The position numbers and the translations under genes were made by a program. From a virus (taxonomy: Duplodnaviria > Heunggongvirae > Uroviricota > Caudoviricetes), in the IMG/VR virus record IMGVR_UViG_2630968533_000009: DNA of 16,383 nucleotides; one strand, 5' to 3'. Under the pieces are notes generated by a model that made no database searches, was not told where the DNA came from, and saw nothing but the letters and a program-made list of their open reading frames with translations. Shown piece by piece: positions 830 through 16,383 of this stretch; position 1 is the stretch's first letter; each line of letters starts with the position of its first letter.

Positions 830-838
830 ATTCTTCAC
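830..838 (+). promoter_or_regulatory. Candidate late-promoter/activator element ATTCTTCAC, copy 1, 48 nt upstream of the 886 start
   Basis: Same 9-mer, preceded by TTAAAG/TTAAAAG, recurs at 2181..2189 upstream of the tail operon. A chance match is possible (roughly 1 in 10 for regions of this size). Confidence 0.25.
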
Positions 839-885
839 TGGCGGGTTCTGACGACACTAAACGCTCACTTATCAGGAGATATCGT

Positions 886-1173: not shown

Positions 1174-1175
1174 TG

Positions 1176-1781: not shown

Positions 1782-1793
1782 TCAGAGGGGCCG

Positions 1794-2108
1794 ATGAAAC
1801 TCAGTATCGATTTTTGGGAAGTGATCTCCCTTATGCTTTCCTTCGTTGGATTAATGTTTGCTGCCGGAAAACTGCTGTTAGCACAAATTGAAAAACGACT
1901 TAATGAGCGTTTTGAGTCTCTGGAAAATGCCCGCAGGGAATCAGAAACAAGTTGGTCGAAACTGGAAAGAGAATTTCTCGAATTTCGTGCCGAGCTTCCG
2001 CTGCATTATGTCCGCAGAGAAGATTATCTTCGTGGGCAAGCAGTATTAGAAGCGAAGCTGGATGCCTTATATAGCAAAATCGAGCTGTTACAACGTGGCA
2101 GTTATTGA
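1794..2108 (+). CDS. Membrane-anchored coiled-coil protein, lysis accessory (possible i-spanin-like)
   Basis: 104 aa with GAGGGG RBS. One N-terminal transmembrane segment (ISLMLSFVGLMFAAGKLLL) followed by a charged helical region. Last gene of the lysis cassette; no partner lipoprotein ORF found. Confidence 0.35.
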   Translation: MKLSIDFWEVISLMLSFVGLMFAAGKLLLAQIEKRLNERFESLENARRESETSWSKLEREFLEFRAELPLHYVRREDYLRGQAVLEAKLDALYSKIELLQRGSY

Positions 2109-2110
2109 AA

Positions 2111-2145
2111 AATCCCCACCCTTATGTAAGGGTGGGGATTTTTTT
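2111..2145 (+). terminator. Rho-independent terminator after the lysis cassette
   Basis: Perfect 14-bp stem AATCCCCACCCTTA / TAAGGGTGGGGATT with a 3-nt loop, followed by seven T residues (2139..2145), directly after the 2108 stop. Confidence 0.8.
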
Positions 2146-2180
2146 AACCATTCAATTTTTTCTCTAAATCACATTAAAAG

Positions 2181-2189
2181 ATTCTTCAC
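2181..2189 (+). promoter_or_regulatory. Candidate late-promoter/activator element ATTCTTCAC, copy 2, 64 nt upstream of the 2253 start
   Basis: Identical 9-mer to 830..838 with the same AAAG-type upstream context, located between the terminator and the first tail gene. Confidence 0.25.
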
Positions 2190-2252
2190 CTTCGCTGCTT
2201 CAGAATACATTTCAACGATAACGAAGTGAGCGGTAATTAAGGTACAGCCTAT

Positions 2253-2708
2253 ATGGAAATTTTATCTGTAATGAATTCTGTTGTGACCAGATTACGTGAA
2301 CACAACTCCGAAATGGATATATTTATTTCATCTAAGGATGCCCAGAAATATATTCCACAGACACAACGAGTTGCAGTGATTATTAATTATAGCGGTTCTG
2401 TCTTTGCTACGCCCGAAAGCAGTAATGCCATCGTGCAACAGCAAATACTCCGCTTAACCGCCACCGTTATTGTTGGCAAAAATTGTGATGCATTAAACGC
2501 ACTTGATCACATACGCAGCGCATTGGGTGGCCTTCCGCTTCCTGATTGTGATCGTCTGCTTTGGCTTGAAAAAGAAATTAATACGGGTGAGAGCGGCGGT
2601 TTCTGCCGCTACATCCTGGAAATGGCGACCAGCTCGCTGTTTATCGCTGAACAGGAAAGCACGGATCTTCCCCTGCTTACGGAAGTTAACTACGAGGAAA
2701 CTGAATGA
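2253..2708 (+). CDS. Phage tail protein, Mu gp37-like (tail completion/terminator candidate)
   Basis: 151-aa ORF, first gene of the tail operon, stop overlaps the next start (ATGA). Assignment rests mainly on position two genes upstream of the sheath, as in Mu-like tails. Confidence 0.4.
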   Translation: MEILSVMNSVVTRLREHNSEMDIFISSKDAQKYIPQTQRVAVIINYSGSVFATPESSNAIVQQQILRLTATVIVGKNCDALNALDHIRSALGGLPLPDCDRLLWLEKEINTGESGGFCRYILEMATSSLFIAEQESTDLPLLTEVNYEETE

Positions 2709-2902
2709 AATACATCTACAACGGCCCAGCAAGCGGCGTCACCCTTGCCGATGGACAAGAAATCTTATTGTGGCCGAACAGTGAAATTGATCTGCCAGAA
2801 GACAACGAGTGGGTCATGACCATGATTGCCCGCAATCATCTGACTCCTGTCATCACTCAGGAAGAACAAAATAACGTAGAGGAAATTGTACATGGCAGCT
2901 AA
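2705..2902 (+). CDS. Small tail-associated protein preceding the sheath (DUF2635-like)
   Basis: 65-aa ORF translationally coupled on both sides. A small conserved gene in this position is typical of Mu-like tail clusters. Confidence 0.4.
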   Translation: MKYIYNGPASGVTLADGQEILLWPNSEIDLPEDNEWVMTMIARNHLTPVITQEEQNNVEEIVHGS

Positions 2903-4316
2903 TTATCTGCACGGTGTAGAAACTATTGAAATTGAAACCGGCCCGCGTCCGGTTAAAGCGGTAAAATCCGCCGTCATCGCTTTAATCGGTACATCCCCCT
3001 GCGGTCCGGTAAATAAACCAACATTATGCCTTTCTGAAAGCGATGCTGCGCAGTTTGGCTCGACTCAGGCTAACTTTACGATCCCACAGGCACTGAAGGC
3101 AATTTATGACCACGGTGCCGGTACGGTGGTGGTGATTAACGTGCTGGATCCGGCAAAACATGGCTCCAACATCAGCAATGAGAGTATCACTTTTGATGCT
3201 AACAACCAGGCGAAGCTCGCTCACCGCAATGTGCGTAACGTGGTACTAAAGCCCTCTTCATCAAATTCATCAACCTTTAACACCGCAGCATTTAGCGTAG
3301 ATGAACAAACAGGCATAATTACCCGTAAAGGAGCCGACATTCCTCCTGGTGCGAAAGTTTGTGCCTATTATTCCTGGTGCGACCCTACAAAGGTCACCGC
3401 AGCCGATATTATCGGTACCGTAAATACCGCAGGCGACCGCACGGGGATGAAACTCCTTCAGGACACCTATAACCTGTACGGTTTCTACGCCAAAATCCTG
3501 CTTGCTCCTGTGTTTTGTACGCAAAAATCGGTGACTACTGAGCTGATTGCACAAGCGGAAAAACTCGGTGCGATTACCTACATTGATGCCCCGATTGGGA
3601 CAACATTCCAGCAGGTATTGGCTGGACGCGGTTCGCAAGGGGCTATCAACTTCAATACCAGCTCTGATCGTGCGCGTTTATGTTACCCACATGTCAAAGT
3701 TTACGATGGCATCACTAACCAGGAAATTCTTGAGCCTCTCTCTTCGCGTGCTGCCGGGCTGCGTGCCAAAGTAGACCTCGAAAAAGGTTTCTGGTGGAGC
3801 AACTCAAACCAGGAAATTCAGGGTATTACCGGTATTGAACGTTCGCTTTCCGCAATGATTGATGATCCACAAAGCGAAGTGAATCAGCTCAACGAAAACG
3901 GCATTACCACTATTTTCAATAGTTACGGCTCTGGTCTGCGCTTGTGGGGTAACCGCACAGCGGCATGGCCTACCGTGACCCATATGCGTAACTTTGAAAA
4001 CGTCCGCCGGACAGGCGATGTAATCAATGAGTCAATCCGTTATTTCAGTCAGCAGTATATTGATATGCCGATTAATCAGGCACTTATTGACGCGCTGACC
4101 GAATCGGTAAATACCTGGGGCCGAAAACTGATTGCCGACGGCGCACTGCTTGGCTTTGAGTGCTGGTACGATCCGGCACGAAATTCACCGGCTGAACTCA
4201 GCGCCGGGCATTTATTGCTGAGCTATAAATTCACCCCGCCACCGCCGCTGGAACGTCTGACGTTTGAAACTGAAATTACTTCTGAATATTTAGTCTCTCT
4301 GGAGAGCAATAGCTAA
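2892..4316 (+). CDS. Contractile tail sheath protein
   Basis: About 474 aa. N-terminus MAANYLHGVETIEIETGPRP resembles the P2 FI / Mu L sheath N-terminus. ATG 2892 with GAGGAA RBS preferred over the track's TTG at 2886. Confidence 0.9.
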   Translation: MAANYLHGVETIEIETGPRPVKAVKSAVIALIGTSPCGPVNKPTLCLSESDAAQFGSTQANFTIPQALKAIYDHGAGTVVVINVLDPAKHGSNISNESITFDANNQAKLAHRNVRNVVLKPSSSNSSTFNTAAFSVDEQTGIITRKGADIPPGAKVCAYYSWCDPTKVTAADIIGTVNTAGDRTGMKLLQDTYNLYGFYAKILLAPVFCTQKSVTTELIAQAEKLGAITYIDAPIGTTFQQVLAGRGSQGAINFNTSSDRARLCYPHVKVYDGITNQEILEPLSSRAAGLRAKVDLEKGFWWSNSNQEIQGITGIERSLSAMIDDPQSEVNQLNENGITTIFNSYGSGLRLWGNRTAAWPTVTHMRNFENVRRTGDVINESIRYFSQQYIDMPINQALIDALTESVNTWGRKLIADGALLGFECWYDPARNSPAELSAGHLLLSYKFTPPPPLERLTFETEITSEYLVSLESNS

Positions 4317-4840
4317 TGGCTGGAAAAATTCAAATTAACCGTATTACCAACGCCAATATTTATCTCGATGGTAATAACCTTTTAGGTCGTGCAACAGAAA
4401 TTAAATTGCCGGATGTAAGTTTAATTATGCAGGAGCATAAAGCACTGGGCATGGTGGGTAAAATCGAACTCCCGGCAGGTTTCGATAAACTGGAGGGCGA
4501 AATTAAATGGAACTCCTTCTATCAGGACGTAATGCGTAAAACGGCAAACCCGTGGCAGGCGGTTGCATTACAGTGCCGCTCCAGTATTGATTGCTATAAC
4601 TCCCAGGGGAAAGCGAATCAATTAGCGCTAGTGACACATTTAACCGTGATGTTTAAAAAGAATCCACTGGGCACATTTAAACAGAATGAAAACCCGGAAT
4701 TCAGCAGCGCCTTTGGTTGCACTTATATTAAACAAGTAGTTGATGGTGAAACGCTGCTTGAACTTGATTATATGGCCAATATTTTCCGGGTTAATGGTGT
4801 GGATCAATTAAGTACCTATCGCAATAACATCGGTGGCTAA
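4316..4840 (+). CDS. Tail tube protein
   Basis: 174-aa ORF immediately after the sheath, start overlapping the sheath stop (TAATG). Size and position match P2 FII / Mu M-type tube proteins. Confidence 0.8.
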   Translation: MAGKIQINRITNANIYLDGNNLLGRATEIKLPDVSLIMQEHKALGMVGKIELPAGFDKLEGEIKWNSFYQDVMRKTANPWQAVALQCRSSIDCYNSQGKANQLALVTHLTVMFKKNPLGTFKQNENPEFSSAFGCTYIKQVVDGETLLELDYMANIFRVNGVDQLSTYRNNIGG

Positions 4841-4844
4841 GTTA

Positions 4845-4864
4845 TTCGGGGCTACGGCCCCGAA
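4845..4864 (+). other. RNA hairpin after the tube gene (8-bp GC-rich stem, 4-nt loop)
   Basis: TTCGGGGC-tacg-GCCCCGAA is a perfect inverted repeat 5 nt after the tube stop, with no long T tract. Likely an mRNA-stabilising or partial-termination element. Confidence 0.5.
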
Positions 4865-4890
4865 CTTTGCAAAATAAATAAGGACACAAA

Positions 4891-5208
4891 ATGAAAGAAC
4901 ATTATATCTTGCAGTTTCCATTTACGTCGGCAGCAGGAAATAATATCGACACGCTGCAATTACGTCGCCTGAAAGTAAAAGATATGCGCAACGCCCGCCG
5001 GATCAGCGAAAAGCCAGAAGAGTGGGATGAACCGCTGATGGCGGCGATGACCGGACTGGTGCCAGAAGATTTAGCCGAAATGGATTTGCTGGATTACCAG
5101 GCATTGCAGAAACGATTTCAATCCATGCTTACCGTGGTTACAGAATCCTCCCCTGCTATGGCAGGCAATGGCGCTACTGGCGAGATGGTTTCGCTTTCCG
5201 CCCAGTGA
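4891..5208 (+). CDS. Tail assembly chaperone (gpE/gpG-like)
   Basis: 105-aa acidic ORF between tube and tape measure, the conserved chaperone position. AAGGA RBS. Confidence 0.5.
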   Translation: MKEHYILQFPFTSAAGNNIDTLQLRRLKVKDMRNARRISEKPEEWDEPLMAAMTGLVPEDLAEMDLLDYQALQKRFQSMLTVVTESSPAMAGNGATGEMVSLSAQ

Positions 5209-5282
5209 GATAGACGCCCTTACCGTCGATGACTTTAGCAACTGGCTGGATGAAGCCAGCGCCCAAATAAAAATCGAATATG

Positions 5283-5307
5283 ACTCGCAGACCTGATGTC
5301 TGCGAGT
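5283..5307 (+). other. Hairpin in the chaperone-tape measure spacer (10-bp stem, 5-nt loop)
   Basis: ACTCGCAGAC-ctgat-GTCTGCGAGT is a perfect inverted repeat. It covers the stop of the +1-frame extension of the chaperone. Confidence 0.5.
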
Positions 5308-5397
5308 TTCCCAAGCCCGTCAGGTTTATTTCTTCCCTGCCCCTTTTTTTAGAAAAATAACCAGCGGGCCATTATCAATATTTAAAGAGAAACAATT

Positions 5398-7773
5398 TTG
5401 GCCAACGATATTATTACCCAGCTTCAGGCGCGTAATGAGACGTTGACGCAGGCAATAGCCCGTTACGGCTCACTCAACGCCAGAACATTGTTAACTCTCT
5501 CTACTCAGCAGGCGACAGTTATCAAACTAACGCAGCAGCTTGCCGATTCCGCTCTCCGCCTGGAGGAAAATAGCCGCAGCCGCGCTAATCTGATGGAGAA
5601 AACCCAAACATTTGCCGGGCAATTTAGCAAAGTATTCAATGTTGAAGCCCCCGACTGGAAGTTGCCGTATGAGTTTCAGGACAACATGGTCAATATGGCG
5701 ACCAAAGGTGGGATGAATGCTACAACCCGCGAGACGCTCAGCCTTAATCTGCGCGACTGGAGCATGGATTTTAACCAGCAGCAGACCACCTTACAGAACG
5801 CAGCCCAAACGCTGATCGAAGGCAATTTGTCGTCGATGCAGGATCTCAACCGTTATATGCCGGAGATCGCCAAAGCTGCCACCGCCACGCGCGAAAGTGC
5901 TGAAACGTGGGCGAATGCCGCGCTCGCGACTCATGATCGACTGAATATTGCCCCGGAAAATTTCCACGCCGCGCAAAACATGATGTACGGCATTAGCAAA
6001 AGCGGTGGGCCTGCCATTGCTGAACAAACGCAGTGGATAGAGAAATTTGCAGGTAAAACCGGCGCTCAGGGTCTGGAAGGTATGGCTGAACTGACTGCCG
6101 CCATGCAGATCGCAATGAAAAATGGGGCCAGCGCCAGTGCGGCGGCGGAGAATTTTGACCACTTTCTGCAAACCACCTTTTCGAAAAAAACCGATAGCTG
6201 GTTCGCCAGCCAGGGCGTCGATCTGCAAGGCTCTCTGCTTGAACATCAGCAAAACGGTATGGGTGTTAGCGAAGCCATGACTCATATCGTACAAATGCAG
6301 CTTGAGAAGATGAACCCGGCGATCCTCGACACCTTCAAACGTACTATGCAGATTGAAGATTTATCTGCTCGCAGCAATGCGCTGCAATCGATGGTGTCGC
6401 AATTTAATCTGGGCGAAATGTTCGGCGATGTGCAAACGGTGGAATTCCTGGCACCTATGCTGGCGAATATGGAGGAATATCGCCAGTTAAAAGCCTCTGC
6501 CATGCAAGCCACCAGCAAGAATCTGATTAACGCTGACTTTTCTGCGCAAATGGCCTCGCCCATTGAACAGACTAAAGCGTTACAGCTGGCATTAAATGAT
6601 TTATGGCTCAGCATTGGTTTGCAGCTTATGCCGGCGATTGGCGAGCTGGCACAAAGCCTTACGACGGTTATTCGCCAGTTCAGCGCCTGGCTACGCGAAC
6701 ATCCGGCGCTGGTGCAAAACATTGCGAAAATCGTCGGGGCGGTTTGGCTGTTTAACGGCGCGCTGAATGTTTTAAAGCTGGGCGCGAACCTCATCACCTC
6801 GCCGTTTATTCGTCTGGTCGATATCTTCCTGAAAGTCAAGGCAAGTCTGGCGCTCACAGGCGGGGCAAGTAAGATGCTATCAGCGGTTAAGTCATTGGGT
6901 GGCGGCGCAAAATGGCTAATGCAACTGCTTGGTCGTGGCCTGATTGGCGCACTGAAACAGGTAGGTCAGACCGTCTTCTGGTTGGGTAGGGTTTTATTGA
7001 TGAATCCCATTGGTCTGGTCATCACTGCGATTGCGGGCGCTGCTTATCTGATTTGTCGCAACTGGGAGCCTATCTCCAGGTTCTTTTCGACCATCTGGCA
7101 ACGTATCACCACGGCCTTTGACGGCGGCATTGCAGGAATTTGTCGGTTGATTCTCGACTGGTCACCGCTGGAGTTGTTCTATAGCGCCTTTTCCAGTGTG
7201 ATGAATTGGTTTGGTGTCGAGATGCCTGCAAGTTTTAGCGAGTTCGGCAGCAATCTTCTGGGCAGTCTGGTTGACGGCATAATGAATGCCTTCCCCGCTC
7301 TGAAAGGCATTATTGATCAGGTAAAAAACGCCATCCCAGACTGGCTAAAAACCACGATGGGTATTAGTACAGAAGGATCGGCTACAGCTATTACAAGCAC
7401 GACTAATACCGCATCCGTCTCCCCCGCGACCGTTGTTCCAGGCGTTGCCGGTGCGATTTTAACACCGCCGGTGGGCAAACAACTCGCGCCATCCGGCAAA
7501 ACGGCTACGCCGTCATCGGCGCCAGCGGCAAAAAATACAGCCGCCAAACCCGTATCTGCCTCTTTACCTGGTAAATCCGTAACCAAACCGGCGACGCTAC
7601 CCTCCCGTTCCTCAGGAAAAGTCCAGGTAAATTTTTCGCCACAAATTACCGTGCAGGGTAACGGACAAAACACCACTAAAGAGATTCAGAACGTGTTGAC
7701 GATGAGTAAACGCGAACTGGAAAGAATGATTAACGATGTAATGGCGCAGCAGCAGCGCCGGGGGTATGCCTGA
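5398..7773 (+). CDS. Tail tape measure protein
   Basis: 791 aa: helical N-terminal region, long central hydrophobic/Gly-rich section, Ser/Thr/Pro/Ala-rich C-terminal segment. Start appears to be TTG at 5398 (no in-frame ATG before an upstream TAA), so the start is less certain than the call. Confidence 0.85.
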   Translation: MANDIITQLQARNETLTQAIARYGSLNARTLLTLSTQQATVIKLTQQLADSALRLEENSRSRANLMEKTQTFAGQFSKVFNVEAPDWKLPYEFQDNMVNMATKGGMNATTRETLSLNLRDWSMDFNQQQTTLQNAAQTLIEGNLSSMQDLNRYMPEIAKAATATRESAETWANAALATHDRLNIAPENFHAAQNMMYGISKSGGPAIAEQTQWIEKFAGKTGAQGLEGMAELTAAMQIAMKNGASASAAAENFDHFLQTTFSKKTDSWFASQGVDLQGSLLEHQQNGMGVSEAMTHIVQMQLEKMNPAILDTFKRTMQIEDLSARSNALQSMVSQFNLGEMFGDVQTVEFLAPMLANMEEYRQLKASAMQATSKNLINADFSAQMASPIEQTKALQLALNDLWLSIGLQLMPAIGELAQSLTTVIRQFSAWLREHPALVQNIAKIVGAVWLFNGALNVLKLGANLITSPFIRLVDIFLKVKASLALTGGASKMLSAVKSLGGGAKWLMQLLGRGLIGALKQVGQTVFWLGRVLLMNPIGLVITAIAGAAYLICRNWEPISRFFSTIWQRITTAFDGGIAGICRLILDWSPLELFYSAFSSVMNWFGVEMPASFSEFGSNLLGSLVDGIMNAFPALKGIIDQVKNAIPDWLKTTMGISTEGSATAITSTTNTASVSPATVVPGVAGAILTPPVGKQLAPSGKTATPSSAPAAKNTAAKPVSASLPGKSVTKPATLPSRSSGKVQVNFSPQITVQGNGQNTTKEIQNVLTMSKRELERMINDVMAQQQRRGYA

Positions 7774-8726
7774 TGTATGCCGTTTTAGGAGAGATTGAAT
7801 TTAAGGTTGTCACATTCTGGGACGGCTTTAAAAGCACAATGGGCGTGGATTACGCCACACATGCCCGTATAGAAGGCAAACCCGGCGTGCAGTTTATTGG
7901 CGATAAGCTGGATATGCTGGCGCTGGAATTTTCCCTGCACAGCCAGTTTTGCCAGCCCACAACAGAGCTGAACCGACTGCGTGAAGCCATGCTTGCTCAC
8001 AAGGCGATGGCACTGGTATTTGGCAATGGCGATTATCGCGGCTGGTTTGTGATTACGGAGCTAACCGCCACCCACCAGCACACCGATCCCTGGGGCAATG
8101 TGATTGCCCAAAACGGAACGATGTCGCTCCAGGAGTACACCGGCGATCCTAAAAATCCACTTTTACCTCCGGCGATTACCACCCAGGAGCCCAACATCGA
8201 GGAAAAGGCGAGCGATTTTCCCGACAAGGTGGAGTCCTGGTTTGATCAGATATTAAACGCCATCGAAGAAGGTATGCGTAAGGCCAAAGAGATGCTGGAT
8301 GAACTGACACAAGCCATTGAAGATATTAAAAAAACGGTGGCAAAAGTGAAAGCAATGATTAAAGAGGCCAAAGCGTTAAAAGAAAAGTGTGAAAAGATAA
8401 TTACGTCATTGAAAAAGACAATCGACGCCATCGAAACCCTGTTTAAACAGCCAATGGATCTGCAAACGCTGGCAGGACTCCCAAAAGCGTTGTCGGCGCA
8501 GATTAAAACTTTACTGGGTAACATGCCAGGTATCCGGGACTGCGCCAATGACGCCAGTACACTGGTTGACCATGCTCAGGCGCTTTTCGACGACATTACC
8601 AGCGACATCGCCGAAGCGACGTTTGATAAAGCCGCAACGTTGGTTGATCAGGCACGAACAACGGTACAACAAACCACTCCCACAGTGAGCCAGCTTGCTG
8701 CCGCGACCATTACGAGGATCTGGTGA
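7773..8726 (+). CDS. gpU-like tail protein with a long C-terminal coiled-coil extension
   Basis: N-terminal ~130 aa (MYAVLGEIEFKV ... DY ... FIG ... LALEF ... GWFVITE) follows the pattern I recall for P2 gpU. The C-terminal ~185 aa are Lys/Glu/Ala-rich and heptad-like. Start overlaps the tape measure stop (ATGA). Confidence 0.6.
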   Translation: MYAVLGEIEFKVVTFWDGFKSTMGVDYATHARIEGKPGVQFIGDKLDMLALEFSLHSQFCQPTTELNRLREAMLAHKAMALVFGNGDYRGWFVITELTATHQHTDPWGNVIAQNGTMSLQEYTGDPKNPLLPPAITTQEPNIEEKASDFPDKVESWFDQILNAIEEGMRKAKEMLDELTQAIEDIKKTVAKVKAMIKEAKALKEKCEKIITSLKKTIDAIETLFKQPMDLQTLAGLPKALSAQIKTLLGNMPGIRDCANDASTLVDHAQALFDDITSDIAEATFDKAATLVDQARTTVQQTTPTVSQLAAATITRIW

Positions 8727-8935
8727 TGCGATACCTTGAACATATCACCACCGACGGCGAACGCTGGGATAATCTGGCATGGCATTACTACGGTGATGCG
8801 CTGGCTTATGAACGCATAATCGCCGCCAATCCACATGTAGCCATTTACCCGGTACTGCCTTCCGGTATTCAGCTCATTATTCCGGTCATTTCCGTCAATA
8901 AAACCTTATCGGAGATCCCACCATGGCTGAGATAA
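8726..8935 (+). CDS. Tail protein X (gpX-like)
   Basis: About 70 aa with GD/ER-WD ... YYGD ... ANP ... LPSG pattern resembling P2 gpX. ATG 8726 overlaps the upstream TGA; GTG 8723 is an alternative start. Confidence 0.7.
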   Translation: MRYLEHITTDGERWDNLAWHYYGDALAYERIIAANPHVAIYPVLPSGIQLIIPVISVNKTLSEIPPWLR

Positions 8936-9963
8936 GCGTAACTGGTGGCGTCTTTGCCACACTCACGCCCATTTTTACCCTCTGGTATGGGCATAAAGAT
9001 ATCACTTATGACATCACACCCTATGTCACCAGCATCAGTTACCACGACAGCATCAAAAACGAGTCGGATACCATCGCAATTACACTGGATGACACAGATG
9101 GACGCTGGATAAAAGAGTGGTATCCCGGCAAAGGCGATACGCTGGCGCTGCATATGGGTTATCAGGGAGAGAAGCTGCTCGATTGTGGTCAGTATATTAT
9201 TGATAAAATTGATATTTCAGCGCCACCTTCTACGGTAAATATTGATGGCATCGCCACTTCCGTCAATCAGGCGCTGCGCACCCGTAACAGCCAGGGTTTT
9301 GAAGAAACGACGCTTTCGGCTATCGCCAGCCGTATCGCACAAACTCACGGCCTAAAGCTGGTGGGCAAAATCGAGCCTCTGACAATTGACCGGGTGACAC
9401 AGTACGGCGAAACCGATGTTGGATTTCTCAAACGTCTGGCCAGTGAATATGGTTATGCCGTAAAAGTGACGACGAAAGAGCTGATTTTTTCACATTTACC
9501 CACGCTGCGCTGCCTGGCACCTGTGAAAAAGATCGACCGCAAAGACGTTTCGCATTTCACCTTCAAAGATACCATTAACCGTATCTACAAAAACGCCACC
9601 GTACAGCATCAAAATAGTAAGAAAAAAGAACTGGTTATCTACACTCACAACAGCCAGCAAAAACCGTCTGCCCGTGGAGTCGGCACCAGTGCCGACACGC
9701 TAAAACTGAACAGTCGGGCGACGGACGTTGGCGCAGCACAGGCAAAAGCCAACGCTGCACTCGACAGCCACAACGAATATCAGCAAACCGGAACGCTCAC
9801 AATGATGGGCTGCCCGGAACTGACGGCGGGCAATAAAATCGAGCTAACCGATTTTGGCGTGCTTTCCGGTCAATGGCTAATTGATAAATCGACTCACAGT
9901 TTTGTGCGCAGCGGCTATACCACTGAAATCGACGTGTCGCGCGGGCCAGCGACCAGCCAGTAA
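8923..9963 (+). CDS. gpD-like tail/baseplate hub protein
   Basis: 346 aa with DDTDG, TTLSAIASRIAQTHGLKL and ETDVGFLKRLA motifs matching the P2 gpD / Mu P family as I recall it. Confidence 0.85.
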   Translation: MAEISVTGGVFATLTPIFTLWYGHKDITYDITPYVTSISYHDSIKNESDTIAITLDDTDGRWIKEWYPGKGDTLALHMGYQGEKLLDCGQYIIDKIDISAPPSTVNIDGIATSVNQALRTRNSQGFEETTLSAIASRIAQTHGLKLVGKIEPLTIDRVTQYGETDVGFLKRLASEYGYAVKVTTKELIFSHLPTLRCLAPVKKIDRKDVSHFTFKDTINRIYKNATVQHQNSKKKELVIYTHNSQQKPSARGVGTSADTLKLNSRATDVGAAQAKANAALDSHNEYQQTGTLTMMGCPELTAGNKIELTDFGVLSGQWLIDKSTHSFVRSGYTTEIDVSRGPATSQ

Positions 9964-9972
9964 GGAGGAAAT

Positions 9973-10674
9973 ATGAAAGGAGTAACCCGTCAAACGGGGA
10001 TTATCAGCGATATTGACGAAACCAGCGTTCGGGTGCGGGTCACGCTCCCGGAGTGTGACAATCTGAAGAGCAACTGGCTTGCGGTACTTCAACGCAATTC
10101 CCAGGACAATAAAGACTACTGGCTACCGGATATGGGCGAGCAAGTGGAAGTTCTGCTGGACAATAACGGTGAAGATGGCGTGGTGCTGGGCGCAGTTTAT
10201 TCTACGGTTGACACCGCGCCTGTAGCCTCGCGCGACAAACGTTACGTCCAGTTTTCTGATGGCGCAGCGTTTGAATATGACCGCAGCACGCACCAGCTGA
10301 CGATCAACGGCGGTATCGAGAAAATCGTGATTGAGGTTATCAACGGTACCTGCCTGACATCGCCCAACGTTGAGATTAAAGCCCAACAGGTCACCGTGAC
10401 TTCCGATACCGTCGATGTTAAAGCGACCGATGTCAGCATCGACGCCACTAAGGTCGAGGTTAAAGCAGCAGCAGTGACGGTAGATGCGCCCATGAGCACC
10501 TTTACTGGCAACGTCACGGTAATGAAAAAACTCACCTGGCTTGGCGGGATGGCAGGAAGTGGAGGCATCGGTAACGCAGCCACGATAACCGGCAATGTCA
10601 ACGTGATCGGCAACGTTCAGGCCAGCGGCGCATTGCAGGACAGCGGTGGCAACTCCAACCACCATTCACACTGA
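9973..10674 (+). CDS. Baseplate central spike (gpV-like)
   Basis: 233 aa with a strong RBS (AAGGAGG). N-terminal domain followed by a Val/Thr/Ala-rich beta-helix-like repeat region and a His-rich C-terminus (NHHSH). Confidence 0.8.
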   Translation: MKGVTRQTGIISDIDETSVRVRVTLPECDNLKSNWLAVLQRNSQDNKDYWLPDMGEQVEVLLDNNGEDGVVLGAVYSTVDTAPVASRDKRYVQFSDGAAFEYDRSTHQLTINGGIEKIVIEVINGTCLTSPNVEIKAQQVTVTSDTVDVKATDVSIDATKVEVKAAAVTVDAPMSTFTGNVTVMKKLTWLGGMAGSGGIGNAATITGNVNVIGNVQASGALQDSGGNSNHHSH

Positions 10675-10679
10675 CGTTT

Positions 10680-10708
10680 AACCCGCCTGATGGCGGGTTT
10701 TCTCTTTT
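10680..10708 (+). terminator. Terminator-like hairpin between gpV and gpW genes
   Basis: AACCCGCC-tgat-GGCGGGTT (8-bp stem) followed by T-rich TTCTCTTTTT, inside the 98-nt gap between the two genes. Confidence 0.5.
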
Positions 10709-10772
10709 TAATCAATCAGTTTTCTAAATCGCTTTAATATCTCCACAGCCCGTTCAGGGCGAAAATACCCTC

Positions 10773-11132
10773 ATGAACACAAAAACACGCCCCTCAACGC
10801 TGCACTGGCAACCGGCCTTGCTGCGGCCTGAAGAATACGTCTGCGGACTGGATGATATTCACCAGGCAATACACATCATTCTGCGTACACCGCGCGGCAG
10901 TGATCCCCACAGACCGCTGTTTGGCAGCAACTTGTGGCACTACATCGATTACCCCATCGAGCGGGCTATCCCGCATGTGGTACGGGAGTCGGTGGAAGCC
11001 ATCCGCCAGTGGGAACCGCGCTGTCGGTTGCTGAAGGTGACACCAGTAATCGACGGCGAACATCTGACGTTACGTGTGCAATGGCGCGCCGCTGACGGCG
11101 TTATCAACTCAACGGAGGTGTTATGGCGATAG
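10773..11132 (+). CDS. Baseplate wedge protein (gpW/gp25-like)
   Basis: 119 aa with IHIILRTPRGS ... FGSNL ... WEPR pattern matching the gpW/gp25 family. Confidence 0.8.
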   Translation: MNTKTRPSTLHWQPALLRPEEYVCGLDDIHQAIHIILRTPRGSDPHRPLFGSNLWHYIDYPIERAIPHVVRESVEAIRQWEPRCRLLKVTPVIDGEHLTLRVQWRAADGVINSTEVLWR

Positions 11133-12100
11133 CCGAACCCAATTTTATTGACCGCGATCCTGCGCAAATTACCAGTGAGATGATTGCGCAATACGAAGAT
11201 GCCAGTGGTAAAAAACTCTATCCGGCACAGGCTGAGCGGTTGCTCATCGACCTGTTTGCCTATCGTGAAAACCTTGTACGCATCGCCATTCAGGAAGCGG
11301 CGAAACAAAACCTGGTCGCGTATTCCCGCGCGCCAATGCTGGATTATTTAGGAGAGCTGGTGGGCGTTCACCGTTTGCCTGCGCAGCCAGCAAAAACGAC
11401 GTTGCAGTTTTCGGTCGTCAGTGCGTATACCAGCAATATCCTGATTCCCCAGGGGACGCGGGCCAGTGCCTCTGATAGCGTGATGTTCGCCACCGATGAA
11501 GATGTTCTGCTTCCGGCCTGGAGTTTGCATATCGCCGTTCCTGCCACCAGCCTCGCAGCAGGTGAACAGGGTAACGGCTGGCAGCCTGCACAAATTAGCG
11601 CTCTGGTCGACAGGATTGGTCATTATGACATCAACGTAACCAACCTGACTGCGTCAACGGGCGGCTGCGGTGAAGAGAGCGATGACGCATTGCGCCAGCG
11701 TATCCAACTGGCACCAGAAAGCTTTAGTAATGCGGGCAGCTATGGCGCATACCGCTTTCATACGCTTTCTGTTAGCCAGTCGATTATTGACGTTGCAGTA
11801 CTGGGGCCGGACGAGGGATTGCCAGAAGGCTGCGTGGAGATCTACCCGCTAACGCTGTTTACCACCGCCGATCAGGAGACAACGCTGGCTGCGGCGCGTA
11901 AAGCGATTAGCCTCTGGACGCAACAGCGGCAGAAACATCTGGGGCAAGACATTGTGCCAAACCAGATAATCAAAGTGTTACAGGTCGATGGCGTCTATGA
12001 CGTTGCGCTGAACTTGCCTACAAAACGTATTTTGCAGGCGCATGAATGGGCGGAATGCACTGCAATAGACGTCACGATCGCCGGAGTTAGCGATGGATAA
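11123..12100 (+). CDS. Baseplate J-like protein
   Basis: 325 aa immediately after the gpW-like gene with overlapping start. Size and order match P2 gpJ / Mu baseplate J. Confidence 0.85.
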   Translation: MAIAEPNFIDRDPAQITSEMIAQYEDASGKKLYPAQAERLLIDLFAYRENLVRIAIQEAAKQNLVAYSRAPMLDYLGELVGVHRLPAQPAKTTLQFSVVSAYTSNILIPQGTRASASDSVMFATDEDVLLPAWSLHIAVPATSLAAGEQGNGWQPAQISALVDRIGHYDINVTNLTASTGGCGEESDDALRQRIQLAPESFSNAGSYGAYRFHTLSVSQSIIDVAVLGPDEGLPEGCVEIYPLTLFTTADQETTLAAARKAISLWTQQRQKHLGQDIVPNQIIKVLQVDGVYDVALNLPTKRILQAHEWAECTAIDVTIAGVSDG

Positions 12101-12809
12101 ATTGCTACCACCGCCGCCGCTTGCCAGCGATGAGCGTTTTTCGATTCTGGCAAATATCGCCGCCGAGCGTTTTGCCCAACTCGATCTGACGGCGTTGATG
12201 GTTTATCTGGTCGACCTGGTTGATGCTTCGGCATTACCAGCCCTTGCAGAACAATTTCACGTTCAGGGGTTGGAAGGTTGGTTATTTACCACCGATGAGC
12301 GGGAGAAACGCGAGTTAATTAAACAAGCCATTGAACTGCATAAATATAAAGGAACAATTTGGGCGGTGCGGCGGGTGCTGGAAATACTCTCCTTACCCGG
12401 AACTATTTCAGAATGGTTTGAATATGGGGGAAGGGCTTACTTTTTTAAGGTTGATATTACACTAGAGGAAAAAGGATTAAATGAAGATGAATTCAATGCA
12501 CTTATCACATTAATTCATGAATATAAAAATGTCCGTTCAAAGCTGGAAAGCATTGTTATTTGGCTTATTAATCGAAGCCCAATACCAGTTATTGGCAGTG
12601 CCATGCAAGGAGGGGAAGTCATTACAGTATTGCCTCCTGTTGCAGAAAGCCTCAGCCAGTCATCTGGAATATTTTTAGCGACAGGTTATTGTGTGGAGGA
12701 ATATATTCAACTACTACCTTATCAACCCGATCGACTAACACAATCCCAACCGATGAAGGTCGGCACAGGATACTGGAGCACCGAAATTATGTCTGTATAT
12801 CCGGAGTAA
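12093..12809 (+). CDS. gpI-like baseplate protein with extended low-GC C-terminal region
   Basis: N-terminus [16 protein letters not shown] is typical of the P2 gpI family. At 238 aa it is longer than P2 gpI, and the C-terminal part (about 12420..12720) is visibly AT-rich. Confidence 0.7.
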
Positions 12810-12812
12810 TAA

Positions 12813-14422
12813 TGGCAAGTGAATTTTTTACAATATTAACTGCTGCAGGCAAAGCCAAAATTGCCTCAGCACTGGCCGAGCAAAAACAGATCCGTCTGCA
12901 AACTATGGTAGTTGGCGACGGTAATGGTAAATATATCGAACCGACAGAAAGTCAGACCAAAGTAGTCCATGAGGTCTGGCGTGGTCAGCTCAATACATTA
13001 AAAATTGCGCCAGATAATCCGGCCTGGGTTATCGCAGAAGCGATTATTCCCGAACAAGTCGGAGGCTGGTATGTACGCGAAGTTGGGTTACTGGATACCG
13101 ACGGCACGATGGTCGCTATTGGTAAATTCCCGGAAACCTATAAGCCACGATTACCTGCGGGGGCCAGTAAGCAAATCGTTATACGCGCGGTCATGGAAGT
13201 CACCAATGCAGATGCGGTGACGCTTTTGATCGACCCTTCAGTCGTTGTGGCAACCAGGGAATATGTCGATGACGCGTTGAAAACACATCAGCAATCACGA
13301 AATCATCCTGATGCGACGCTGACACAAAAAGGTTTTACGCAGCTGAGTAATGCGACTAATAGCGATGATGAAACCAAAGCGGCCACGCCAAAAGCGGTAA
13401 AAACGGCATATGACCTGGCAAATAGCAAAGCTGCCACCAGTCATAATCATGCCTGGAATCAGATTACTGGTATCCCTGATGGTACACTGACGCAGAAAGG
13501 AGTCGTTAAGCTTAACAATACAACAAATAGCACCAGTACGACGGAAGCTGCAACACCAAGTGCGGTTAAGGCAGCGATGGATAAGGCTATTGCTGCGGCA
13601 CCGTCCAGCCATACCCATGCCTGGGGGCAAATAACAGGTATCCCCGACGGTACGCTGACGCAAAAAGGGGTCGTGAAACTTAATAATGCGACCAACAGCA
13701 CCAGTACGACGGAAGCTGCAACGCCGAACGCTGTTAAGGCAGCGATGGATAAGGCTATTGCTGCGGAAAGCTGTCCTGTTGGGATGCCTATTCCCTGGCC
13801 ATCTGATTCTGTACCTTCAGGCTACGCTCTGATGACAGGTCAGACATTTAATAAAACCTCCTATCCCAAACTGGCAATTGCATATCCATCTGGTGTTATT
13901 CCTGATATGCGCGGATGGATAATTAAAGGAAAACCATCCAGTGGGCGCGCTATATTATCTACTGAACTGGATGGAGTTAAATCACATAACCATACGGGCA
14001 GTATTTCGAGTACGGACTTAGGGACGAAATCTGTATCATCAATAGATCTAGGAACAAAGAACACTCAGTCATTTAATCATGGGATAAAAACAACAAATAC
14101 AGCAGGCGCGCATAGCCATGATAGTGGTTCTGGCGAAAGTAGTGAGGGGGGAAAACCTCGGTATGGTACTCGTGATAACACAACAAATAATTTTGGTTCT
14201 GGTGAATCAGATCATGACAATTACAAATTTAACACATCCACGGATGGAGAGCATGCACATTCAGTTAATGTTGGCTCACACTCTCACTCTGTTATTTTAG
14301 GGTCACATAATCATTCAATTGCCCTTGGTTCCCATAATCACTCCCTAACCATTAATAATACCGGCAACACCGAAAACACCGTCAAAAATATCGCATTCAA
14401 CTATATTGTGAGGCTAGCATGA
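12813..14422 (+). CDS. Tail fiber protein
   Basis: Conserved Mu S / P2 H-type N-terminal domain, three internal fiber repeats, collar-like segment ([11 protein letters not shown] ... [12 protein letters not shown]) and HxH-rich tip. Start set at ATG 12813 after the gpI stop; the track's 12689 start is an upstream in-frame extension. Confidence 0.85.
13306..13766 (+). repeat. Tandem tail-fiber repeats (about 56 aa / 168 nt period, three copies)
   Basis: Copies 2 and 3 (13469..13598 and 13637..13766) are near-identical in nucleotide sequence, differing mostly at synonymous positions. Copy 1 (from about 13306) is more diverged. Protein motif TLTQKG-x-LNNxTNS ... EAATP-x-AVK-x-A-x-D. Confidence 0.7.
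14264..14344 (+). repeat. Three tandem 27-nt repeats encoding x-x-x-G-S-H-x-H-S
   Basis: GTTAATGTTGGCTCACACTCTCACTCT / GTTATTTTAGGGTCACATAATCATTCA / ATTGCCCTTGGTTCCCATAATCACTCC, in frame within the fiber C-terminus. Confidence 0.7.
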
Positions 14423-15126
14423 ATACTTTTACCTTTTCCGATGAAGCTCAAATACTAACTGTATATAATTTTTCACAAGACTCCCAAGAATATATCGGTG
14501 AGTCTGATGCATACATTGCACCTAATACAGGCTTGCCAAATTATTGCACATTAATTTCACCTCCCGAAAAGGTTCCTGGTTTTACTCCAGTGTGGGAGAA
14601 TGAAACATGGAGACTTATTGAAGATCATCGAGGCCAAACTGTTTATAACAAAGTTGATGGTAGCCAGCTTATTATTCAAGAATTGGGCCAATTACCTGAA
14701 AATGTAACAGTCATTTCCCCGACAGGTTCTTTTGAACGTTGGGATGGTGAAAAATGGCAACCATCTATAACCGATGCTAAAGAGGCGAAATACTCTGCAA
14801 TCAAAAATCAACGCGATGCCATCACAACCGATTACATCATCATCAACAACCATCACTTCCACAGTGATACAAATAGCCGTATCCAACAGCTTTCACTCAC
14901 AAAAATGGGAGCGGAGAAAAAAATTCCGCCAGGTTTAATGTGGAAAACTAAAAATAATGGTCTGATTGAGTTAACCAACGAAATCGCTGCCCAGTTTGAA
15001 TCGGTCACCATGGATCACGATATGCGCTTGTTCGCAAACGCCCAGCGTCATATCGCGGCGGTGGAAGCACTGGACGATATTCAGGCGGTGCTCGACTACG
15101 ATTATTCAACAGGCTGGCAACCATGA
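14419..15126 (+). CDS. Tail fiber assembly chaperone (Tfa-like)
   Basis: 235-aa ORF directly after the fiber with ATGA start/stop overlap. AT-rich N-terminal two-thirds and a normal-GC C-terminal about 45 aa ending [10 protein letters not shown]. Confidence 0.6.
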
Positions 15127-15578
15127 GTAAAACCACTGTCTGGCTCGCTTGTTATAAGGGCCGAACAGAGCACCGTGGTATTGCCCGACTGGCTGACTGG
15201 CTTACCCGTAAAATCACACGCGGTCATTATTCCCACTGTGAATTAGCCGTTAAGCATGGTGAAAAGAGATACCTTTGTTACTCTGCATCACTGCGCGATC
15301 GCGGTGTACGCGGAAAGATAATGCCATTGCCAGCGGATAAGTGGGATATGCTGCCGCTCCAGGCTAGCCTTCAGGATGTGGAAACTTTTTTCCGTAAACA
15401 TGATGGCAAAAAATATGACTGGCGCGGAGCATTAGGAATTATTACCGGTAATAAAGAACAGCGCGATCGCCTGTTTTGCAGTGAATTTTGTGCTGAATTT
15501 CTGCAACTGAAGGAAAGCTGGCGCTATTCTCCAAACCACTTGTACGCTTTAGTCAGCAGCTGGCAATACCAGCAATAA
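15123..15578 (+). CDS. Hypothetical protein, possible LRAT / permuted NlpC-P60-like thiol hydrolase (accessory gene)
   Basis: 151-aa ORF translationally coupled to the fiber assembly gene (ATGA). Motifs YSHCELAV ... KHG and LFCSEFCAEF resemble the His ... His ... Cys order of that fold, from memory only. No signal peptide. Confidence 0.3.
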   Translation: MSKTTVWLACYKGRTEHRGIARLADWLTRKITRGHYSHCELAVKHGEKRYLCYSASLRDRGVRGKIMPLPADKWDMLPLQASLQDVETFFRKHDGKKYDWRGALGIITGNKEQRDRLFCSEFCAEFLQLKESWRYSPNHLYALVSSWQYQQ

Positions 15579-15583
15579 ATCAC

Positions 15584-15602
15584 GCCGGGCTTTATGCCCG
15601 GC
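15584..15602. terminator. GC-rich hairpin between convergent genes (possible bidirectional terminator)
   Basis: GCCGGGC-tttat-GCCCGGC, 7-bp all-GC stem, 6 nt after the 15578 stop and overlapping the stop of the minus-strand gene. Confidence 0.5.
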
Positions 15603-16383
15603 ACATTACCGTTTGATACAGCAAATTATCTAGCTCCCGAACATCTCCATCTCGACTGTCCGGTAAAATCGGTGGAATTTCCCCGCGCGCCAGTTCCGCG
15701 CGAATAAACGCATGCAATAAAGGACGGCGCAGTCCATATTCCGCTTCACTCGCACGCTGTTTACGCTCCAGCAATTCATCTATTTCTGCGCGTAAGGCCG
15801 CATCCAACTCACTTCCCGCCAGTAACTCGGCAAAGCGCATTGGCGGCACGCCTTTTCCCGCTTCAACCCAGCGTACGGCCAGCAGCGGGCGCAGCACGTA
15901 AAAGTATTTTTTCAGTCGAACTTCGTCGCCCTGTAAATAACCGCGAAAGTTTTTCTGCGCCATCGAATAGTAATGCCAACGCGCGCGCAACGAAGAAAAC
16001 CACATTGGGACCATTGCCTTAAGCGCCGTTATCGTTTCTTCATCTTGTTGATAGACCACCGGAGAATCCAGCCATTCTATCAGCGTCGGATTCGCGCCTT
16101 TCAATAATCCCAGCGCCTTACGCCACTCCCAACCGGAAACATCTAACTCGTCGTCGATAGGCAGTTCGATAACATCGCGCGGTGACTCTACACGCAGATA
16201 CCATTCTAGCGGATGGACATACAAAAACCGTACATCGTAGTCGCTATCGGGCGAGGCAAATCCCCAGCCGCGGCTGCCTGATTCACAGGCGTACAGCACT
16301 TTCACGCCATAGCGACGTTCTATTTCTTTTAACTGCTGCGATACCCGTTCGCGCATCGCAGCACTGACTCCATTTAATGGCAT
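15592..16383 (-). CDS. Nucleotidyltransferase (Pol-beta superfamily), probably outside the tail locus
   Basis: N-terminal ESGSRGWGFASPDSDYDVRF matches the GS-x(n)-D-x-D nucleotidyltransferase signature. ATG lies exactly at the window end (16381..16383), so the true start may be upstream. Convergent with the tail operon. Confidence 0.6.
   Translation of the reverse strand: MPLNGVSAAMRERVSQQLKEIERRYGVKVLYACESGSRGWGFASPDSDYDVRFLYVHPLEWYLRVESPRDVIELPIDDELDVSGWEWRKALGLLKGANPTLIEWLDSPVVYQQDEETITALKAMVPMWFSSLRARWHYYSMAQKNFRGYLQGDEVRLKKYFYVLRPLLAVRWVEAGKGVPPMRFAELLAGSELDAALRAEIDELLERKQRASEAEYGLRRPLLHAFIRAELARGEIPPILPDSRDGDVRELDNLLYQTVMCRA

Follow-up and report, generated by a model that had tools for sequence, protein, structure and literature searches.

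The distal 220 residues of the tail fibre encoded in the DNA analysed here (16,383 nucleotides, hereafter the window) form, with a probability of about 85%, a receptor-binding tip of the phage T4 gp37 type, in which six His-x-His (HxH) motifs per chain would build six metal cages of structural role, receptor specificity being located in a short head at the end of the needle. What carries this reading is homology to gp37, the placing and conservation of the motifs, a variable head and a chaperone gene linked to the fibre gene, and it extends conditionally to the geometry of the trimer, the binding and identity of the metal, and a role in folding. An earlier note on this DNA had already suggested that the His-rich tip coordinates metal ions like the interdigitated trimeric fibre tips of T4, and homology supports that interpretation. 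That gp37-type tips and gpV-type spikes contain HxH cages is well established from structures, and this fibre is a clear homologue: for the tip itself little changes, since it follows an already well-known design that was correctly spotted. The locus context is more interesting, with a headless, selectively maintained cluster carrying allelic tips that could plausibly be a native tailocin.

Organization of the fibre and its chaperone

The fibre (Table 1) begins with an N-terminal baseplate-attachment domain; three repeats form its shaft, and a collar leads on to the needle tip. Pfam recognizes Phage_tail_fib at residues 1-149 (2e-59), Phage_fiber_2 three times (1e-51), and the Collar domain PF07484 at residues 324-370 (E=1.2e-10, above the curated cut-off), directly N-terminal of the needle. 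The T4 counterpart of the collar, domain D10 of gp37, comprises residues 811-881 plus 1010-1026 (PMC6957217). Between its two HxH motifs, the ascending strand carries three 10-11-residue units of the D-L/Y-G-x-K type (32 residues), and the descending strand is made of four tandem 9-residue units (36 residues) with one HxH each. A conserved C-terminal return strand is present over 18 residues, and the last 16 residues of the fibre are identical to the C-terminus of T4 gp37. A G6 homopolymer (14146..14151) lies inside the head segment. The value of this map for annotation is that it places the likely receptor-binding head at nt 14120..14251, as the segment to swap or mutate for retargeting fibres or tailocins. 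The RefSeq label of the gene says merely 'phage tail protein', and PGAP breaks the intact gene into pseudogene fragments in sister strains.

The chaperone gene located directly downstream encodes a protein 25% identical to T4 gp38 (BLASTP, E=2e-12). Its N-terminal half is gp38/Tfa-like and varies with the fibre tip, and its C-terminal DUF4376 half is constant across locus variants: a divergent E. coli lineage (L004) thus carries another tip and another N-terminal half, with the same C-terminal half.

Table 1. Features of the spike, fibre and chaperone genes in the window; motif coordinates run from the first His through the second His
Feature	Position (nt)	Strand	Residues	Description
Central spike	9973..10674	+	233 aa	gpV-type; C-terminal HxH H231-S232-H233, nt 10663..10671
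Tail fibre gene	12812..14422	+	536 aa	gpH-type; RefSeq WP_022646408.1 'phage tail protein'
Two shaft HxH motifs	13442..13618	+	H211/H213, H267/H269	SHNHAW, nt 13442..13450; SHTHAW, nt 13610..13618
Collar domain, N-terminal part	13769..13981	+	320-390	Pfam Collar and 2XGF alignment; equivalent to T4 gp37 domain D10
Needle ascending strand	13982..14119	+	391-436	basal HxH H392/H394, distal HxH H434/H436
HxH, SHNHTG	13985..13993	+	H392/H394	
HxH, AHSHDSG	14111..14119	+	H434/H436	
Hypervariable tip head	14120..14251	+	437-480	44 aa; likely receptor-binding surface
Needle descending strand	14252..14368	+	481-519	four tandem 9-residue units, one HxH each
HxH, EHAHS	14252..14260	+	H481/H483	
HxH, GSHSHS	14279..14287	+	H490/H492	
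HxH, GSHNHS	14306..14314	+	H499/H501	
HxH, GSHNHS (second copy)	14333..14341	+	H508/H510	
C-terminal strand returning to collar	14369..14419	+	520-536	last 17 residues
Tail fibre assembly chaperone	14419..15126	+	235 aa	Pfam Caudo_TAP and DUF4376; PHROG tail fibre assembly family

Number and periodicity of the His-x-His motifs

The C-terminal 220 residues contain 14 His and six HxH motifs, to be compared with an average of about 0.8 in shuffles of the segment, none of which reached at least six in 100,000 trials; for the whole fibre, eight motifs stand against a shuffle mean of 0.78, and 0/100,000 shuffles reach eight. The tip is therefore rich in HxH, as had been noticed before, and every motif listed at that time is found in the translation of 12812..14422 (+). 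The description of the distal part as three tandem units of 27 nt needs revision on two points. The spacing of 27 nt is exact, but the units do not constitute a DNA tandem repeat: they are 56-67% identical at the nucleotide level, and Tandem Repeats Finder reports no repeat over 13500..14600, so that the repeat exists at the protein level only. Moreover, there are four units of nine residues and not three, EHAHSVNVG being the fourth in the same register, with motifs beginning at residues 481, 490, 499 and 508. These 9-residue units are an old periodicity of the protein.

Two further motifs, absent from the earlier list, occur in the shaft at equivalent positions of successive Phage_fiber_2 repeats, and the variant fibre of L004 has the same HxH-W motif in its own shaft repeats. 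The sole match in a PDB search with the shaft region is fibre S of phage Mu, which has DRNGA where the shaft HxH stands. The shaft motifs may possibly be extra histidine cages.

Homology to the T4 gp37 tip

A phmmer search of the PDB relates fibre residues 317-536 to the T4 gp37 tip (2XGF) with E=3e-66 for the single sequence and 1.4e-103 for a family profile, the match covering chain residues 24/25-242, i.e. the entire collar-plus-needle region. The pairwise alignment shows 128 identical residues over 206 aligned positions (62%). T4 gp37 carries seven HxH motifs (883, 915, 929, 966, 980, 989 and 998); all six tip motifs described here align with T4 counterparts, leaving one ascending T4 site (915 or 929) unmatched, and the four descending units align with H966, H980, H989 and H998. 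The partner of H434 differs according to the method, H915 being obtained by pairwise alignment and H929 by family alignment and unit counting. H915 was rejected as the sole mapping, as the family alignment and the counting of elements favour H929, the assignment still being ambiguous. Taken together (E value, 62% identity, aligned HxH), the likeness to the T4 long fibre amounts to homology rather than mere resemblance. The parallel drawn with the T4 short fibre holds for the collar, which is shared (9CUY, E=1e-7), but no T4 gp12 chain occurs among the PDB matches, and this comparison consequently rests on the literature.

Both gp37 and this fibre display a collar followed by an out-and-back needle, a 9-residue descending register and a gp38-type chaperone gene directly downstream. 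They differ in the number of HxH motifs (six here, seven in T4, which has an HxH unit where this fibre has its third D-L/Y-G-type unit, FNHGIK), in the spacing between the first and second descending motifs (9 residues here, 14 in T4), and in the head, which has 44 residues here and 34 in T4, with unrelated sequences, so that the receptor is probably different. The shaft differs as well, as the tip is grafted on a P2/Mu-type gpH shaft in a protein of 536 residues, to be compared with the 1026 residues of T4 gp37. The likeness to the short-fibre collar family is limited to the collar (PF07484; 9CUY, 'Short tail fiber') with no homology in the needle, and T4 gp12 has a single HxH metal site, seen with zinc (PMC6116203).

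A monomer AlphaFold2 model of the tip, based on an alignment of 44 sequences, reached a mean pLDDT of 57 and a pTM of 0.23. Foldseek places 2XGF first with this model (E=1e-11), but with a TM score of 0.26 (2XGF_A) and an rmsd of 15.8 Å, so that the monomer model says nothing on geometry and the match is one of sequence and local shape only. Such a poor model is expected of an obligate interdigitated trimer.

Proposed architecture of the needle

In the T4 gp37 crystal structure, three chains contribute their HxH motifs to His6 cages that enclose seven buried irons along the needle (PMC6957217, PMC6116203), and this octahedral His6-Fe site is common to gp37, P2 gpV, phi92, PA0616 and the R1/R2 pyocin fibres (PMC6116203). 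By analogy, the collar of the present fibre would be followed by a thin needle of three chains, each running to the tip and back, and at six levels along its axis the HxH motifs of all three chains would face inward, six imidazoles per level surrounding a buried metal octahedrally as a cage (in the T4 crystal structure, the metal is Fe(II)). The cages would replace a hydrophobic core, keep the three chains in register while folding, and stiffen the needle. They would make no contact with the receptor, specificity lying in the 44 hypervariable residues of the head, which separate the second motif from the third; in T4, receptor-contact residues map to the equivalent tip (PMC6957217). Plaque formation by T4 is abolished by the gp37 substitutions H929A or H931A, which Islam et al. 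ascribe to the importance of these residues for folding and structure (PMC6957217). Folding probably depends on the gp38/Tfa-like chaperone, and the spike of the same particle would end in one further HxH cage, comparable to those of P2 gpV and R2-pyocin PA0616.

Conservation and distribution of the tip

Of 95 distinct homologues, 94-95 have His at each of the twelve tip positions, which are invariant or at least 90% conserved in the 44-sequence alignment. H392/H394 are invariant (95/95), H434/H436 are His in 94/95, and the eight descending-strand histidines are invariant or nearly so. Between H436 and G479, the same 44-sequence alignment has no conserved column, and the divergence between allelic tips found at one chromosomal locus is concentrated in and around the head segment. 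The alleles of this locus include those of the window, L006 and L007. Six HxH is a common count, encountered in 82/95 close homologues and 27/118 of a more diverse set of relatives (representatives of 50%-identity clusters). In this diverse set, 113/118 members have as many ascending elements as descending HxH units, as expected from an out-and-back hairpin built in whole rungs. The distal ascending HxH is missing in some alleles (L006, P0005), and not every cage is thus indispensable.

In a tblastn search, 280 phage records match the tip with 44-62% identity and a coverage of 80% or more, and 1345 clusters of the protein database match it with E<=1e-10, the nearest non-identical cluster being about 70% identical. 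The collar-plus-needle module is shuffled among unrelated tails, including the side tail fibres and tail fibres of various coliphages and prophages, lambdoid ones among them (for example PhiR26_1, mEp332, HK629, 2H10, Chlobot). The head sequence is specific to the E. coli locus: a megablast search of phage genomes with the fibre-Tfa region gives no match, and no phage record matches the head at the DNA level. Matches to the whole window in DNA searches are limited to one Salmonella chromosomal contig and short fragments.

What else could the histidines do?

The sequence does not fix which metal binds, and the cages could hold zinc, nickel or any available divalent ion with the same architecture. 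Crystals of T4 gp12 did show zinc at the HxH site, but a zinc salt had been used to refold that protein, whereas the natively folded sites listed in the same source (gp37, gpV, phi92, PA0616 and the R1/R2 pyocin fibres) all contained iron (PMC6116203). Given also that the tip is 62% identical to the iron-bearing gp37, a metal other than iron seems improbable. A direct role of the histidines or of the iron in host recognition has been considered as well, either through docking to siderophore receptors, the 'Ferrojan/Trojan horse' idea published for HxH-bearing fibres (PMC11705849), or through His protonation acting as a pH trigger. Islam et al. do count the tip-most T4 histidines as critical for function, but they put the essentiality of H929/H931 down to folding and structure (PMC6957217), and in published descriptions the irons are buried and have a structural role (PMC6957217, PMC6116203). 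Determinants of specificity would moreover show the reverse of the observed pattern, in which the His columns are invariant and the receptor-facing head is free to vary, making a recognition role highly improbable. Finally, the 27-nt periodicity, in a region rich in Gly, Ser, Thr and His, might evoke a slipped DNA repeat, i.e. a compositional or recent-duplication artefact with no specific role. This can be regarded as already refuted by the conservation of the His columns over the 95 homologues and the 118 cluster representatives; the low DNA identity of the units, the negative Tandem Repeats Finder result and the presence of the same 9-residue register in T4 (980/989/998) point in the same direction.

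A maintained tail cluster at the lysC locus

The fibre gene belongs to a cluster of holin, endolysin, lipoprotein, sheath, tube, assembly chaperone, tape measure, D, V, W, J, I, fibre and Tfa genes, which together make up a complete contractile-tail set plus lysis genes. In E. coli lineages and Salmonella alike, it is bordered by lysC on one side, and by nucleotidyltransferase, slipin and yjbD on the other. BcepMu-like transposable phages have the most similar tail genes (70-74% sheath identity). Could the fibre gene be part of a decaying prophage remnant, with no functional fibre and motifs that are mere relics? The cluster has no capsid/head, packaging, replication or integration genes, the gpJ of the window has suffered a 46-aa in-frame deletion that is absent from carriers such as Ecol_881, where gpJ has its full length, and one strain has frameshifts both in the G6 run within the tip and in its tape-measure gene. 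Set against this, every tail ORF of the window is open, the cluster occupies the same site in E. coli (including extraintestinal lineages) and in Salmonella, dN/dS between the window's cluster and its Salmonella counterpart is 0.04-0.12 over 12 genes, indicating purifying selection, and different strains carry different intact tip alleles, a pattern that fits a maintained tailocin-like function. Decay is thus unlikely, though it retains some weight.

A headless tail-plus-lysis cluster, under purifying selection and with swapped tips, makes a tailocin candidate. We tentatively propose, as a possibility that we would not put at even odds, that the fibre is the targeting device of an undescribed, long-maintained R-type tailocin of E. 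coli and Salmonella, residing at the lysC locus and of BcepMu-like tail origin, with a killing range set by exchangeable gp37-type metal needles that are built in whole rungs and tunable in length, metal number and head. If so, a rung would consist of one ascending 11-residue and one descending 9-residue HxH unit, needles would have 3, 4, 5 or 7 rungs, and metal content could be tuned from 4 to 8 or more ions, along with the rungs and the head sequence. Chimeric receptor-binding proteins could be designed with the help of such a rung-wise rule of needle length.

R-type tailocins (R1/R2 pyocin, carotovoricin, the P2-like ones of Dickeya) likewise possess a headless contractile-tail set with lysis cassette, spike, fibre and chaperone, and share with this cluster the diversification of fibres at a fixed locus; R1/R2 pyocin fibres also bear an HxH-Fe site (PMC6116203). 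They differ in their regulator (PrtN/PrtR, and a Mor/C-type activator here) and in the fibre tip, which has a lectin fold in pyocins and is gp37-type here. The literature searched for a lysC-located tailocin of E. coli or Salmonella, or for STM4198-4219, yielded neither a functional description nor a report of killing particles, and STM4200 is mentioned there solely as a serovar-specific PCR target. A paper on an 'ST131 tailocin' (PMC9205054) was considered as possibly describing the same locus and set aside: its s2 is a P2-like prophage that is complete, capsid genes included, and its s1 a 23-kb remnant. Neither could be linked to the locus described here, and its supplements contain none of five protein accessions taken from the cluster.

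The central spike

The spike encoded upstream of the fibre shares with P2 gpV (3QR7/3QR8) and PA0616 an OB-fold N-domain (PF04717, Phage_base_V, 4.8e-08; 3QR8, E=3.4e-15 over residues 7-163), a beta-helical middle and a C-terminal HxH. Its residues 204-233 align with residues 156-185 of the R2-pyocin spike PA0616 (4S36/4S37), which ends in NSNHHTH, and the ending GGNSNHHSH is kept in the Salmonella orthologue and in L004. The earlier note was right about the NHHSH terminus but gave its range one codon too far downstream (10657..10671 is correct), 10672..10674 being the stop codon. Its suggestion that the spike tip may also bind metal is supported by the homology to gpV (3QR8) and PA0616, both counted among iron-binding HxH spikes (PMC6116203; preprint 10.1101/2023.02.25.529910), and, judging from these homologues, the spike apex would bind Fe. 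The apex cage of P2 gpV is built from H197/H199, and its destruction or deletion has little effect on infection in the laboratory (10.1101/2023.02.25.529910), so that conservation is no proof of an essential role. The HxH is the very last tripeptide both here and in PA0616, while P2 gpV runs 12 residues past H199, and the spike described here has an extra adjacent His (HHSH).

A gp37-type needle tip on the tail fibre

The fibre gene, whose identical copies in E. coli chromosomes are named only 'phage tail protein' in RefSeq, encodes every one of the His-x-His (HxH) motifs quoted for its tip in the earlier note. The C-terminal 220 residues hold 14 histidines and six HxH motifs, against a mean near 0.8 in shuffled sequences (six or more in 0 of 100,000 shuffles), and this clustering is not due to chance. 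No Pfam domain covers the final 165 residues. When the fibre sequence was compared with the Protein Data Bank, residues 317-536 matched 2XGF, the crystallised receptor-binding tip of T4 gp37 (E=3e-66; E=1.4e-103 with the family profile); 128 of the 206 positions in the pairwise alignment are identical, and the last 16 residues are the same in both proteins. The proposal of a metal-binding tip resembling that of the T4 long fibre is thus supported by homology to a solved, metal-containing structure, beyond motif resemblance. The monomer model of the tip is poor (mean pLDDT 57), and its match to 2XGF is local only (TM 0.26).

In such tips, three symmetry-related HxH motifs form an octahedral His6-Fe site, listed for gp37, P2 gpV, the phi92 spike, R2-pyocin PA0616 and the R1/R2 pyocin fibres, while zinc was seen in the HxH site of gp12, a protein refolded beforehand in a zinc salt (Buth et al., PMC6116203). 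Seven iron atoms are coordinated along the gp37 needle, and the H929A and H931A substitutions abolish plaque formation (Islam et al., PMC6957217); destroying the P2 gpV cage, that is, the six histidines surrounding one metal ion, barely changed laboratory infection (preprint 10.1101/2023.02.25.529910). For the fibre tip studied here, we infer both the occupancy by metal and the identity of that metal.

The seven T4 motifs lie at 883, 915, 929, 966, 980, 989 and 998. The four fibre motifs of the descending strand (the returning run of each needle chain) align unambiguously with 966, 980, 989 and 998, and the basal motif (H392) aligns with 883. The T4 partner of H434/H436 is ambiguous, being 915 in the pairwise alignment and 929 in the family alignment; 929 is favoured because of the structural-element counts of both tips, as the basal motif of gp37 is followed by two D-L/Y-G-x-K-type units, an HxH unit and the distal HxH, whereas that of the window fibre is followed by three D-L/Y-G-x-K-type units and the distal HxH. 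Whichever alignment holds, the fibre tip would have six potential cages and T4 seven. The tandem 27-nt units described previously stand in part: their period is exactly 27 nt, but only 56-67% of bases are shared and Tandem Repeats Finder reports nothing. Moreover, EHAHSVNVG precedes the three GSHxHS units in register with them, and the descending strand therefore comprises four 9-residue units, not three.

The HxH motifs of the shaft could form further histidine cages. S-H-x-H-A-W closes each Phage_fiber_2 repeat, and the fibre of the L004 locus variant has four shaft motifs of this type, with W after three; the motif is not found at this position in phage Mu fibre S, the sole solved relative aligning there.

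Coordinates and content of the features discussed (window positions unless a locus is named)
Feature	Location	Strand	Remarks
Fibre gene	12812..14422	+	536 codons; motif-bearing part is the last third
P2 gpH-type N-terminal domain	fibre aa 1-149		Pfam
Phage_fiber_2 shaft repeats, three	fibre		Pfam
Shaft HxH motifs, two	13442..13450, 13610..13618 (aa 211, 267)		in Phage_fiber_2 repeats; absent from the earlier note's list
Collar domain	fibre aa 324-370		Pfam
Tip HxH motifs, six	13985..14341 (start aa 392, 434, 481, 490, 499, 508)
Counterpart of counted needle elements	13982..14368
Variable 44-residue head	14120..14251	+	equivalent to T4 tip subdomain
Tfa chaperone gene	14419..15126		next after fibre; overlaps fibre stop codon
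Spike gene	9973..10674		gpV homologue (3QR8, E=3e-15)
Tail cluster	1..15578		contractile tail and lysis; also in L001, L003, L004, L005
Nucleotidyltransferase gene	15592..16383	-	adjacent to slipin; region extends beyond the window (L001 16093..18017)
Salmonella cluster	L008 6165..24935		Infantis SARB27; gtrABC interrupts between V and W
Intact allelic fibre genes	L006 553..2130; L007 553..2190; L005 ~17450..19030
Window tip			6 HxH
L005/L006 tip			5 HxH; without distal ascending motif; different head
L007 tip			7 HxH; four ascending units, five descending HxH units
Salmonella (L008) tip			7 HxH; four ascending units, five descending HxH units
L004 tip			0 HxH; unrelated, glycine-rich; Tfa N-half replaced, C-half kept

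Conserved histidines, variable head and needle length

Homologues at E<=1e-10 comprise 1345 clusters at 90% identity in the protein database and 846 representatives in the 50%-identity library. Each of the twelve tip histidines is a histidine in 94 or 95 of 95 distinct close homologues and is invariant or at least 90% conserved in an alignment of 44 sequences, in which no column is conserved from H436 to G479. The T4 residues that contact the receptor were mapped to the tip subdomain matching this head (PMC6957217). Invariant buried ligands beside a freely varying loop are what one expects where structural metal sites adjoin a determinant of specificity. Not every cage is obligatory, as natural alleles lack the distal ascending HxH (the homologous protein P0005 and the L006 tip). 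A G6 homopolymer lies within the head (14146..14151); in L003 (FDAARGOS_1285), a frameshift at this run cuts the tip short before the four descending HxH units, possibly a sequencing error since the tape-measure gene of L003 is frameshifted too.

Needle elements were counted in 118 representatives of 50%-identity clusters (proteins P0121-P0267), taking as ascending elements the 11-residue D-L/Y-G units plus the HxH units after the basal HxH, and as descending elements the 9-residue HxH units. Both counts are equal in 113 of the 118 (3:3 in 33, 4:4 in 71, 5:5 in 9); permutation gave a mean of 55 matches and reached 113 in 0 of 10,000 trials, a match count that is not a probability because the tips are related to one another. 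One 7:7 tip occurs among closer homologues. The tips of the representatives have 4 to 8 HxH motifs in total, and one closer homologue has 9. Needle length thus looks modular, and equal counts among these interrelated tips fit a hairpin whose length changes in steps of one whole rung.

Chaperone and spike

The N-terminal half of the tail fibre assembly (Tfa) chaperone shares 25% identity with T4 gp38, the folding chaperone of gp37 (E=2e-12); further matches are Pfam Caudo_TAP and the PHROG families for tail fibre assembly, and the C-terminal half of the protein is DUF4376. Across locus variants, the gp38-like N-half (~125 aa) is replaced along with the tip (14419..15126 compared with L004 20682..21296), and the DUF4376 half is identical or nearly so. 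This pattern points to an N-half that recognises the tip and a C-half that acts on an unchanging partner.

The His-rich C-terminus of the central spike had also been put forward as a metal-binding tip, a view that its homology to gpV (3QR8) and PA0616 supports: the last 30 residues align with PA0616, ending in GNSNHHSH in the spike and GNSNHHTH in PA0616. Since tip and spike are both homologous to solved, metal-containing structures, this strong homology supports both parts of the earlier interpretation, which is correct in substance. Fibre and spike join already well-known kinds: needle tips of gp37 type, stabilised by metal, and the HxH apices of gpV-type spikes.

A headless tail cluster in E. 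coli and Salmonella

More interesting than the tip may be its setting, a conserved, headless and selectively maintained cluster with exchangeable needle tips, which is a candidate for a tailocin native to E. coli and Salmonella. Chromosomal DNA of many E. coli genomes matches the window at 100% identity, and at least 80% of the window is present in about 156 of the 5426 complete E. coli genomes. In the annotated neighbourhood, the 15.5-kb cluster has lysC on one side and a nucleotidyltransferase/slipin pair adjoining yjbD on the other. It starts with genes for a Mor/C-type late activator, holin, endolysin, a lipoprotein and a Mu gp37-family protein, followed by sheath, tube, assembly chaperones, tape measure, D, V, W, J, I, fibre, Tfa and one further ORF; capsid, packaging, replication and integration genes are absent from it. 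Some 1,600 E. coli genomes match the window by the nucleotidyltransferase gene alone (~90% identity), so that this gene is apparently part of the chromosomal backbone or of an island of its own, outside the tail cluster. The slipin gene was seen only in annotated loci with the tail cluster.

In Salmonella enterica, the same headless cluster adjoins lysC (LT2 tags STM4198-STM4219). Comparison of twelve genes with those of the window gave dN/dS of 0.04-0.12 at dS of 0.6-2.7, which indicates long purifying selection. Among complete phages, those with the nearest sheath protein are BcepMu-like (70-74% amino acid identity). The lysC-adjacent cluster thus bears the marks of a domesticated tail cluster and is an R-type tailocin candidate. 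No account of it as a tailocin was found in the searched literature; the 'ST131 tailocin' (PMC9205054) lies at another genomic site and is a complete P2-like prophage.

Intact tips at this one locus vary between strains. PGAP splits the intact fibre genes of L005-L007 into two pseudogene fragments ('incomplete; partial in the middle of a contig'), apparently an artefact of annotating so variable a tip.

An 89-aa ORF between the Mor and holin genes (388..657) is without family match or RefSeq annotation. The 151-aa ORF after Tfa (15123..15578), whose sole match is the PHROG 'enoyl-CoA hydratase/carnithine racemase-like', is kept in the E. coli and Salmonella clusters. Compared with J of L003 and L004, the window gpJ (11123..12100) has a 138 bp (46 aa) in-frame deletion at 11847..11854, flanked by short GCTAAC direct repeats; in this group of strains, the baseplate might be inactivated or changed by the deletion.
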